This document shows, piece after piece, positions 11,428 to 14,107 of a DNA stretch of 23,254 nt (position 1 is its first letter; each line of letters starts with the position of its first letter). The stretch spans positions 17,634-40,887 of the forward strand of contig JBHLPF010000028.1 of assembly GCA_048939765.1 (NCBI GenBank), read 5' to 3'. Source of the DNA: Promethearchaeota archaeon. Lineage in GTDB: Archaea > Asgardarchaeota > Thorarchaeia > Thorarchaeales > Thorarchaeaceae. The notes under the pieces were generated by a model. That model did not search any database. It was not told the origin of the DNA and saw nothing but the letters and a program-made list of their open reading frames with translations. The translations under genes and the position numbers were made by a program.

Positions 11428-12663
11428 CTATGCAACATTAGTCCTCTCAAGAAGGGGCTCAAGAGAAATCTCCATTTGAAGATTGACCTTCTCTTCAAAG
11501 GACTCTAGAATCTCAGATTCAATCCTCACCTTGAAGTCCTTTGCACGAGAAATTTCACGAGAGATATCATCCCTGATCCTTAGCATGTCGTTTCGGTGAT
11601 ACTCCAAGTTCCTCTCGGCTTCATTCAGCTCCTCATGCAGTTTTGCGCTCTTCGCGTAAACATCAGAATCAGCAAATGCATGGCGCTTCTCTTCCAGTTC
11701 CTTTGCTTTCTCTTGAATCTCACCTAGAGATCCATTACTAATGGCTTCGACCTCTTCAATAGCCCTTCTTGCCAGTCGGTCCTTCATAGGAAGCTTACCA
11801 TTCTCAATTGCCTTCCTTAACCCTGCCAAGCCCTCCAATAGTCCAGGATAGCCGATTGGCTCTTCCACAATAGCTTCATACGGATTCTCGAAGTAGTCGT
11901 TTAATGCCTTCTGCCCTGTCGCACTCACTCTCACACCAGTATCATGTTGAAAGAACTTCTTCACCTGCTTCTTGAGTGGATTAAGTTTCATTCTCAGCAG
12001 ACTCGCAATGTGGTCTGCTTCAGAGTCGATGTTCAACAAATCTGCTACGTTCGAAGTTTCGGTAAATTCTTCATAGGCTTCCTTTGCCGATTCATATTCG
12101 CTCAGTGCTGTTTCAATCTTAGCACGAGTCGTACGAATCTGTTCTTCATATACCTCCTTGCTGAAGCCAAGATCCTGAAGGGTCTGGATTCTACCGCCTA
12201 TACGCTCCAAATCCTTAAGCCAGCTGAACTCGTAGAGCAATTTCTGTATCTTGTTCATCTCTGACATGAGTTCCTTCATGCTGACATCCAGCTGCTTGAT
12301 AGTACTCTTGTGCTTCTTGTCCATCCGTCTAATCCAACGAGCGCCGGCACCCCAGAGTTCCTGGATGAAGCTTCGAATCCCTTCTTGAAGTGCCTCAGTG
12401 CTTTCATACGTTATTTCCTTACCAACGTAGAAATCATTTGTAATGTCTTCGACCTTCATTGCAAATCTTGTAGCAATCCCTGTGGAATCAGGATCATCTT
12501 CTTCACCTGGTTCTTTCAGATTTCGCGACATCTCCTGAATGTCTTTCAAAGACCTCTCTACGATTCTGTAGCTCTTTTCGGCCTTTTTCGTAAAATCCTT
12601 GGACATCTTGCTTAGACGCTTGCGATACCACTTCTGAAGCTGCTCGATTGTAAGAGTCGTCAT
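11428..12663 (-). CDS. Hypothetical alpha-helical/coiled-coil protein
   Basis: 411-aa charged helical ORF, 15 bp upstream of dtdA. GGTGG SD. No Walker motifs. Confidence 0.8.
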   Translation of the reverse strand: MTTLTIEQLQKWYRKRLSKMSKDFTKKAEKSYRIVERSLKDIQEMSRNLKEPGEEDDPDSTGIATRFAMKVEDITNDFYVGKEITYESTEALQEGIRSFIQELWGAGARWIRRMDKKHKSTIKQLDVSMKELMSEMNKIQKLLYEFSWLKDLERIGGRIQTLQDLGFSKEVYEEQIRTTRAKIETALSEYESAKEAYEEFTETSNVADLLNIDSEADHIASLLRMKLNPLKKQVKKFFQHDTGVRVSATGQKALNDYFENPYEAIVEEPIGYPGLLEGLAGLRKAIENGKLPMKDRLARRAIEEVEAISNGSLGEIQEKAKELEEKRHAFADSDVYAKSAKLHEELNEAERNLEYHRNDMLRIRDDISREISRAKDFKVRIESEILESFEEKVNLQMEISLEPLLERTNVA

Positions 12664-12805
12664 TGGAAGTCCACCTGAGATTCGAAAGGGTTTTCCGAGT
12701 GCACTTTATCAACTTTGTGACCCGAGCGTAGCTACATAACTTGTGTATGGTAGACCTTTTAACTCTAGGAAACTCGGAGAAACTAGCATAGGAACGTGGT
12801 CGGTC

Positions 12806-13609
12806 ATGTCCGAGATCTTTGAAACCGGTAACCGACGTCCAAGACTCGACATCAATTATGCTGTTGAATGTGCGTCATGAGGCTTAGGTCGCATCGGTTT
12901 CTACATCAGACGCCTCGGACTGATAGATCCCACCGGAAAGGAGCGACTATTGCTCAAGAATCCTGCTGACTATAAAGGCGGTATCTGGGCGTCATATGTC
13001 GTTGATGGGACCGCGGCTGTCGTGGAATCGACAGAAGCCGACACCATTGCTGTCGTGGAGCGAAAGCAGAAGAAGGGTAGCCTAAGTCTGGTGATGAACC
13101 ACACACCTCATGAATTCGAAAAACCTGTGGTGGCCTTCACACTTGACATGTGGAGCTACAACAAACCTGTCTTGTTGCTCCGGCATTCGACAACGAACAT
13201 CAGCTCAAGCATGGTCCAAGACCTCAAGGTCTACAGCATCTTCGACTTCGACATCGGAGGTCCAATGAGCTATAAAGACGACATGGGCACGTATGACAAG
13301 AAGAACGGAATTGTCATTGCCTATGATGAAAGTCAGCTCTCTGTAGCCATGGCCTCACAGCCGAGTCCCGATGGCTGGGAGATATCATCTCCACTAAAGC
13401 TCAAGGTAGAATCAGATAAGCGCGACCTGAAGAACAACCCCGAAGCGGGACCGAAGGACATTGCCACCGGTCTGCAGTGCAACCTAGGTGATTTAAAGCC
13501 GGGTGATAGCAGTTCGGTAAATCTTGTCCTCGCCTCTGCGTATGGTCTTGACGAGGTTCGAAGCCTCATCGATATGTCATGGGGCTTCTTCAAAACAAAA
13601 ATCCGATGA
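12806..13609 (+). CDS. Putative selenoprotein (267 aa, CxxU at residues 22-25), beta-rich body
   Basis: ATG 12806 is in frame with the called ORF at 12950 (offset 144 nt). The single internal TGA at 12878-12880 lies in ECAS*GLGRIG. A SECIS-like hairpin sits at the 3' end and a TTTTAA box at 12757-12762. Confidence 0.75.
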
Positions 13610-13649
13610 TGTCTACACCTAAAGCAAAATGGTGTCGATGGAGGCCGGG
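13602..13649 (+). promoter_or_regulatory. Eukaryote-like SECIS element (putative)
   Basis: UCCG-AUGA-UGUCUACACC-[UAAAGCAAAAU]-GGUGUCGAUG-GAG-GC-CGGG: tandem G.A core, about 10-bp upper stem with one U.C mismatch, apical AAA, short lower helix. Confidence 0.7.
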
Positions 13650-13672
13650 CTGCAACCCGCGGTAAGCACAGA

Positions 13673-13717
13673 AAAAAGATGAGAGGAGGCCACTCCTAGA
13701 AGTGATCCTGCCTCTCA
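13673..13717 (-). terminator. Hairpin plus U-tract terminator after the wHTH gene
   Basis: Minus strand reads TGAGAGG...CACTTCTAGGAGTG...CCTCTCA TCTTTTTT. Confidence 0.5.
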
Positions 13718-14107
13718 CTCATAATCCTGTTCTTCAAGGAAGTTAGCCAACATTACAGCAGTTGCTGTAAGCTTCGCCAGCTGTCCTCTGTTTTCCAAAT
13801 CACCGCCAGATAGCAGACCCAAGTCCATCAAGGAACGCAGGTTCCATTTCACAGTACTATAGGCCACTGAAGTCCTACGGGACACCACATCTGCTAATGC
13901 CGTCACTGTCAGATCATTATGCCTTAACAGCTGGGCACTCACTCTCAGAACGTATTTCTGAGTCTCACTCATTCTCATATCTGCTAAAGAAAGGAATGAT
14001 GCAGCGAGGCTCTCAAAAGAAGGCTTGGCGAAAGGTTCGTGACACTCTTGGAATACCTGGTTGACACTAGAGAATACATTCACCTCTTTGGCGAATTTGG
14101 CACTCAC
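13715..14107 (-). CDS. Winged-helix DNA-binding protein
   Basis: MSETQKYVL...TVTALADVVS...YSTVKWNLRSLMDLGLL...AKLT. Confidence 0.75.
   Translation of the reverse strand: MSAKFAKEVNVFSSVNQVFQECHEPFAKPSFESLAASFLSLADMRMSETQKYVLRVSAQLLRHNDLTVTALADVVSRRTSVAYSTVKWNLRSLMDLGLLSGGDLENRGQLAKLTATAVMLANFLEEQDYE

Follow-up and report, generated by a model that had tools for sequence, protein, structure and literature searches.

Can one UGA serve as the stop codon of a selenoprotein gene while also forming part of the RNA element through which another UGA of the same mRNA is read as selenocysteine (Sec)? This question is raised by the 3′ end of a gene at positions 12806-13609 of a 23,254-nucleotide stretch of DNA from a Promethearchaeota archaeon of the class Thorarchaeia (the whole stretch is hereafter called the window), where an earlier note had proposed a eukaryote-type SECIS, with apical As above a kink-turn core. 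Asgard SECIS elements have been proposed to connect the archaeal and the eukaryotic ways of decoding selenocysteine, and have so far been catalogued only beside homologues of known selenoproteins. The element described here is very probably a functional Asgard-type (eukaryote-like) SECIS of the gene that it terminates: the covariation of the RNA, the conserved in-frame TGA, the Sec machinery of the genome, and the layout of a vhuU SECIS in the same genome all agree with the proposal.

The host gene and its in-frame TGA

The features of the gene and its upstream region are as follows.

12755-12764, plus strand: TATA-like box CTTTTAAC, aligning with a conserved TTTATAT about 45 nt before the ATG
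12796-12801, plus strand: Shine-Dalgarno-like GTGGTC, 4 nt ahead of the ATG
12806-13609, plus strand: predicted selenoprotein gene of 267 codons plus stop (open reading frame with TGA read as U), with CxxU at residues 22-25
12878-12880, plus strand: in-frame TGA, predicted Sec codon 25

Ordinary open reading frame calling starts this gene at TTG 12950, and all proteins returned by a protein search were unnamed, of Thorarchaeota type, and ragged at their N-termini, which start past the TGA. With TGA read as a residue, the frame is open back to ATG 12806 and holds a single in-frame TGA, in the motif C22-A-S-U25. A scan of GTDB genomes yielded 44 orthologous loci, nearly all labelled Thorarchaeota, with protein identity going down to 43%. 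Codon 25, which the earlier note had taken for Sec, is TGA at the same column in 43 of the 44 orthologues and Cys in the other one, and the protein is conserved across it. Indeed, the pattern MSE-LETGNR-PRLD--Y--EC-S is conserved ahead of the in-frame TGA in the translations of 43 loci, and a 34-sequence alignment showed invariant residues on both sides of it (G8, P12, R13, L14, D15, and C22 before; G26, G28, and G31 after). There is no ATG, GTG, or TTG from the TGA to TTG 12950, yet this stretch is conserved. Furthermore, GTGATC or GTGGTC followed by GGTC-ATG is kept in nearly all orthologues, and the conserved Shine-Dalgarno-like motif and ATG indicate that translation starts upstream of the TGA. 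The TATA-like box may act as the promoter.

A different account of the locus takes TGA 12878 for an ordinary stop, with the protein starting downstream, and assigns the 3′ hairpin, as a kink-turn RNA, some other role: as an element that binds L7Ae and governs translation or stability, as a terminator hairpin, or as an RNA of the box C/D type. Binding of kink-turns by L7Ae is common to all archaea, gene callers do put the protein start past the TGA, Rfam returned no match to a SECIS family (at the gathering score and also at E <= 10 on 13400-13900), and the Cys orthologue retains the hairpin. However, such an account has to contend with protein conservation that crosses the TGA and includes invariant residues upstream of it, with a conserved stretch free of start codons between the TGA and TTG 12950, with a conserved Shine-Dalgarno motif and ATG lying 72 nt ahead of the TGA, and with an orthologue that carries Cys at exactly the TGA column. 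In addition, like RNA follows two more TGA-containing genes, namely vhuU and a small open reading frame, and the C′/D′ boxes and guide regions of a box C/D-like RNA are absent. This account is considered very unlikely, and the locus is predicted from its sequence to be a Thorarchaeota-specific selenoprotein gene.

The host protein has no match in Pfam or NCBIfam. A confident AlphaFold (AF2) model (pLDDT 89, pTM 0.89) has a predicted beta-supersandwich fold, resembling the domains at the N-termini of GH15 glucoamylase and GH94 phosphorylases, and matches the GH15 N-terminal domain with a Z of 22.8 and an rmsd of 2.5 Å over 227 residues. The fold of the predicted model is not of the thioredoxin type.

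Several observations concern the flanks of the gene. Upstream, a motif at 12704-12720 (CTTTATCAACTTTGTGA, mostly TTTATCAACTTTATGA in the orthologues) is conserved at about 90-100 nt before the ATG; it lies in a divergent intergenic region and is possibly a promoter or operator of the divergent gene. The product of that gene (11428-12663, minus strand) is a helical protein of 411 aa, for which Pfam gave matches below threshold to BAR (E = 5e-5) and VPS28 (E = 7e-4); a role of the ESCRT or membrane-remodelling type is conceivable for this Asgard protein. Downstream, a 7-bp inverted repeat, UGAGAGG/CCUCUCA (13680-13686/13711-13717), lies between convergent genes, overlaps the stop of a minus-strand wHTH gene (13715-14107), and has an A-run ahead of it on the plus strand (a T-run on the minus strand); the zone 13680-13717 is probably a terminator region. 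Weak Rfam matches (SNORD15, miRNA, ctRNA) fell on the minus strand and came from this unrelated repeat, and were discarded.

Structure and covariation of the 3′ element

From 13598, the window reads ...AAA AUC CGA UGA UGUCUACACC UAAAGCAAAAU GGUGUCGAUG GA GGC CGGG CUGCAA CCCG..., and the whole element, made up of a predicted kink-turn, helix II, and hairpin 2, spans approximately 13602-13659. Its parts are listed below.

13603-13604, plus strand: 5′ strand of the predicted kink-turn C-stem, CC, also within the last two sense codons
13605-13607, plus strand: predicted 3-nt kink-turn bulge G-A-U (R-A/G-U in the family; alignment columns 19-21)
13606-13609, plus strand: AUGA SECIS core, ending in the stop TGA of the open reading frame (13607-13609)
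13610-13619, plus strand: 5′ strand of helix II, UGUCUACACC (8 pairs in RNAalifold; 87% of cells paired)
13620-13630, plus strand: apical loop UAAAGCAAAAU, 11 nt, with a conserved AAA (columns A35-A37, invariant or nearly so)
13631-13640, plus strand: 3′ strand of helix II, GGUGUCGAUG, partner of 13610-13619
13641-13642, plus strand: 3′ GA of the tandem sheared G.A/A.G pairs (G nearly invariant, A invariant)
13643-13644, plus strand: 3′ strand of the C-stem, GG, pairing with 13603-13604
13646-13659, plus strand: hairpin 2, CGGG-CUGCAA-CCCG (stem of at least 4 bp here in 39 of 45 orthologues)

Most of the fold drawn in the earlier note was recovered on reading the sequence: the AUGA that includes the terminal TGA, the 10-position helix, interrupted by a single U.C mismatch (13614/13636) and containing two G.U pairs, the loop, and the 3′ GA are all in place. 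The window loop opens with UAAAG, and most orthologues have GUAAAGC-NNN-GCAG at this position, with a 2-bp ministem. The lower helix that had been proposed between UCCG (13602-13605) and CGGG (13646-13649) was given up, showing no covariation across the 45 orthologues. Two of its four pairs (columns 16-19 with 62-65) are unpaired in 24 and 26 of the 45 sequences, and only one cell is changed on both sides. Instead, CGGG 13646-13649 pairs with CCCG 13656-13659 to form a second hairpin, and the pairs found below the G.A pairs are C13604-G13643 and C13603-G13644, with G13605-A13606-U13607 bulged.

Folded alone, the window element is unexceptional (MFE of -18.5 kcal/mol; z = -0.79 versus shuffles), and its significance derives from conservation and covariation rather than from the window sequence by itself. 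The RNA comparison comprised 45 sequences, namely the window and 44 Thorarchaeota loci, which are mutually related, so that the 45-locus counts overstate independence. All 45 end in the same frame with R-UGA (ATGA in 43, GTGA in two), and TGA terminates about 40% of long open reading frames genome-wide. Covariation in orthologues, which the earlier note had suggested looking for, was found in helix II: RNAalifold recovered eight pairs from the 45-sequence alignment, every one with compensatory changes. For the full structure, 82% of cells were paired, compared with 68% in shuffled alignments, none of 500 shuffles reaching as high a value, and with 40-53% in slid-partner controls. In the core, columns C18, U21, G22, A23, A57, and G58 are invariant, with C18-G58 (C13604-G13643) retained in 45 of 45; among the three apical As, one is invariant and the other two, like G56, are nearly so. 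The adjoining pair 13603/13644 (columns 17-59) covaries (CG 15, GC 8, UA 4, AU 2).

These data also dispose of the idea that a chance stem-loop with AUGA and GA motifs happens to end an ordinary gene. This idea would suit the single-sequence z of only -0.79, as well as the behavior of a loose SECIS descriptor, which gave 207 matches in the genome versus 102 in the shuffled genome, many of them inside coding regions. It is nevertheless refuted by the comparison, since every helix II pair covaries and the core bases are invariant over the 45 loci, and since a covariance model of the element core (R1) scores 30-64 bits in every orthologue; its probability is taken to be negligible.

In a simple kink-turn, the C-stem closes with a C-G pair, the bulge is 3 nt long with U as its last base, G.A and A.G pairs follow in tandem, and the 3b.3n pair is often non-Watson-Crick. 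Kt-7, U4 snRNA, and box C/D are such kink-turns, and the window family matches the pattern: the sheared pairs are G22.A57 and A23.G56, the N-R-U bulge is kept, with the U invariant and the A almost invariant across orthologues, and column 24/55, the putative 3b.3n, is unpaired in 27 of 45 sequences. The core therefore carries the sequence signature of a simple kink-turn, from which a kinked geometry is inferred; the bulged geometry of 13605-13607 is suggested by the invariance of the flanking C-G pair.

Hairpin 2 has a loop of the form n-A/U-G-C-A, in which the G is invariant and the C nearly invariant. In most orthologues, AUCUUCUU, which lies past hairpin 2, is the pairing partner of the Lys-Lys-Ile codons (AAGAAGAU), and the resulting lower helix, hairpin 2, and the kink-turn arm together make a three-way junction. 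At least five contiguous base pairs of the lower helix are present in 36 of the 45 loci, versus 19.8 on average and 27 at most after shuffling, and in some orthologues the helix reaches 11 bp with clear compensation. In the clade of the window itself (the window and L008-L013), searched also downstream of hairpin 2, no lower helix was found, the longest runs being 3-5 contiguous bp, which is the level of chance; judging from these sequences, the lower helix has been lost in this clade, and with it the three-way junction. A three-way junction on the C-stem side is also the point of likeness between most orthologues and k-junctions, from which the window clade differs in lacking it.

Sec machinery and related elements in the genome

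The host genome (3.37 Mb in 108 contigs, 88.5% complete) was found to encode tRNA-Sec, SepSecS, and a selD with an in-frame TGA (...THG-U-SCK...); the machinery check covered these three components. With this machinery present and an R-UGA stop in 45 of 45 sequences, the claim that one mRNA uses UGA both as Sec and as the stop inside its SECIS is supported. Three further loci of interest in the host genome (G000), given by contig, are the following.

G000:C86 1679-1515, minus strand: vhuU, with the core only some 96 nt downstream of the Sec codon
G000:C87 (in L059), minus strand: 3′ end of selD, with the UGA of an A/GUGA core as its stop
G000:C12, L053 1236-1439: second candidate open reading frame, 67 codons, with its RNA at 1504-1560 and relatives in L090-L095

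The vhuU SECIS, found in the descriptor scan, reads AUGA-AGACUCGGUC-GUAAAGACUUG-GACUGGGUUG-GA, and its spacing (AUGA, 10 nt, GUAAAG loop, 10 nt, GA) is the layout of the window element. The vhuU frame (...CYDC-U-LSCGAH...VTGGG) stops at the UGA of its own AUGA, an arrangement observed in five of the five genomes of the genus in which the gene was found. Likewise, in selD of the host genome and of genome G031, the stop lies inside A/GUGA, and a helix, an A-rich loop, and GA follow. Among the matches of the loose descriptor, eight have (G)UAAA loops, three of them at TGA-containing open reading frames; three others lie within continuous reading frames and were rejected as chance matches.

An Infernal model built from known selenoprotein genes, as advised in the earlier note, gave a divided answer. 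The model R2, built on five vhuU SECIS elements only, left the window element undetected, its best matches reaching 8 bits and lying elsewhere; it is too narrow, because the five sequences are 90% identical. Likeness was thus absent at the level of sequence, as judged with the vhuU model, and present at the level of the descriptor, and the resemblance of the window element to known SECIS elements is architectural.

R1 gave one strong match in the 3.37-Mb genome other than the window element, at 42.7 bits and 3′ of a TGA-containing open reading frame. This 67-codon frame has an N-terminal membrane anchor, a Thr-rich linker, and the sequence C-T-T-G-TGA-PPPLF...NP (...PPCTTG-U-PPP...), and its SECIS lies about 65 nt past its TAG stop. 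Six related genomes carry the small open reading frame and the RNA as well; the helices covary among them, and the SECIS follows a TAG or TAA stop at a distance of about 65 nt. Conservation past the TGA is clear only in the closest group. From these sequences, the small frame is a candidate for a second unlisted selenoprotein family.

Hairpins akin to hairpin 2 also trail the vhuU and small-frame elements. A hairpin directly after the kink-turn, with the loop n-A/U-G-C-A, is common to the new family and the small-frame family, and vhuU has a CCC-GCAA-GGG hairpin in the equivalent position. The places concerned are 13646-13659 in the window, columns 61-75 of the alignment, and about 1545-1562 of L053.

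The only orthologue with Cys, at L021 3007-3845 in genome G031, has ECSSCGQG at the Sec column. Its hairpin scores 40 bits with R1, in the lower tail of the family, and is SECIS-like and somewhat degraded, with the TGA stop kept in the AUGA. SepSecS was not found in its genome, in which selD contains an in-frame TGA; because of this selD, the genome is not read as Sec-free, and L021 is read as a recent Sec-to-Cys change. Since the Cys form keeps the hairpin, structure and TGA do not strictly go together, in a comparison with this one orthologue.

Relation to described SECIS elements and the role of the stop codon

An overlap between SECIS and stop codon has been described before. Eukaryote-like lokiSECIS elements may overlap coding sequence, and in VhuU.1 of Lokiarchaeota the AUGA coincides with the stop codon, whose proximity was argued to preclude recoding (Mariotti et al., 2016; PMC4989117). 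UGA stops in Loki genomes were later reported to overlap the AUGA motif frequently (Huang et al., 2024; PMC11227280). Thus, the placement of the stop in AUGA, the headline feature of the earlier note, is confirmed here and is not new, and the argument for stop protection had likewise been published. The window element resembles lokiSECIS in its AUGA...GA core, main stem, A-rich loop start, position at the 3′ end of the gene, and distance from the in-frame UGA. It differs in coming from Thorarchaeota, in belonging to a gene family outside those described, and in the start of its loop, which is (G)UAAAG rather than AAAAA. Beyond lokiSECIS, its family has a conserved second hairpin and, mostly, a lower helix formed from the last codons.

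A survey of Asgard genomes defined eSECIS-like models of types I and II (Huang, Xiao & Zhang, 2024; PMC11227280). These have an (A/G)UGA...(G/A)A core and an upper stem of 7-15 bp with at most two mismatches; unpaired 5′ As stand in a loop of 8-20 nt in type I, or in a bulge followed by a ministem and a 2-6-nt loop in type II. The element is expected between -30 and +600 nt of the 3′ end of the gene, together with an in-frame UGA that aligns with Cys (PMC11227280). In the window, the core is AUGA/GA (ATGA or GTGA in 45 of 45 sequences), the upper stem has 10 positions with one mismatch, and the 11-nt loop is of type I, whereas most orthologues are of type II (GUAAA-GC-NNN-GC-A, where the bulge has 5 nt, the ministem 2 bp, and the loop 3-4 nt). 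The element overlaps the stop, the TGA at codon 25 is present in 43 of 44 orthologues and aligned with the Cys of L021, and the host has tRNA-Sec, SepSecS, and a TGA-containing selD. The SECIS loops of Thorarchaeia frhA were reported as G[U/G]AAA in the same survey, in which SECISearch3 returned nothing on Asgard genes (PMC11227280).

Compared with eukaryotic SECIS elements (forms 1 and 2, bound by SBP2), the window element shares an R-UGA/GA core, a putative kink-turn here, and a 3′ location, has a helix II that sets unpaired As 10-11 nt past the core, and would likewise act on a UGA hundreds of nucleotides upstream. The differences are that it overlaps coding sequence and stop codon, that it has no Rfam SECIS match, and that SBP2 was not found in Asgard archaea (PMC11227280). 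Its core resembles a minimal kink-turn, whose bulge has 3 nt and whose closing C-G pair is invariant, in place of the larger internal loop of eukaryotic SECIS. No helix I with an internal loop below the core was found in the window clade; other orthologues have a lower helix, into which hairpin 2 is inserted.

If the element works like eukaryotic and Lokiarchaeial SECIS, its folded form would recruit the Sec-specific elongation factor with Sec-tRNA(Sec), either directly or via a kink-turn-binding protein, and selenocysteine would be inserted into CxxU by a ribosome that pauses at codon 25, a UGA 729 nt upstream. No experiment so far shows Sec insertion in any Asgard archaeon (PMC9622424). A ribosome arriving at the AUGA would already have unwound the C-stem and the kink-turn, so that the UGA of the core would be read as a stop and not recoded. 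Such protection of the stop by terminating ribosomes that melt the element, as suggested in the earlier note and by analogy with VhuU.1, is plausible. Because RNA and protein share bases here, the last codon can only be C-R-R, which encodes Arg or Gln.

The same overlap could also have been selected as a regulatory throttle, in which terminating ribosomes, by unfolding the SECIS, let translation feed back on the reading of codon 25 as Sec; the arrangement would then be kept for that purpose, and not just for compactness or insulation of the stop. Its retention in 45 of 45 orthologues down to 43% protein identity, and its occurrence in vhuU and selD of the lineage, would fit such a role. However, the overlap arises automatically once a UGA-containing core sits at the end of a gene, and conservation of the core alone accounts for it, so no extra function is needed. 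The small-frame SECIS, lying about 65 nt past a TAG or TAA stop, indicates that overlap is not required for function, and Mariotti et al. (2016; PMC4989117) read the overlap as an effect of minimal distance only. A throttle is thus rather unlikely, and a SECIS whose core simply shares its UGA with the stop is the preferred reading.

The newer part of the finding appears to be the host gene. The published survey searched for homologues of known selenoprotein families and listed seven Asgard families (PMC11227280); the host family is outside these seven, and the parts of a 2026 review that were available (PMC13188914) neither add archaeal families nor include it. As far as these lists go, the conserved host family is absent from them, and the published Asgard selenoproteome therefore looks incomplete. 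Searching outward from the SECIS appears to work in the Thorarchaeota lineage, and the clean covariation over 45 loci provides a defined core (kink-turn, helix II, GUAAAG loop, and hairpin 2) for search models, which is also usable for binding or reporter designs. The interest of the locus lies in this unlisted host family, in the second candidate family obtained from the model, and in the architecture of an extra hairpin and a junction.

A hairpin 3′ of the core is not described by Mariotti et al. (2016; PMC4989117) or Huang et al. (2024; PMC11227280), and its loop pattern is common to the new family and the small membrane frame, and loosely to vhuU. A tentative extension, possible though less likely than its opposite, is that the thorarchaeal SECIS is a distinct variant, in which a minimal kink-turn sits in a three-way junction on its C-stem or is stacked on an obligatory hairpin 2, and in which the hairpin 2 loop would be a second recognition site for an Asgard SECIS-binding factor or EFSec. 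SECIS-first searches might then yield several lineage-specific families on scaffolds that are not thioredoxin-like, such as the beta-supersandwich and the small membrane-anchored peptide seen here, which homology-based surveys would have missed.
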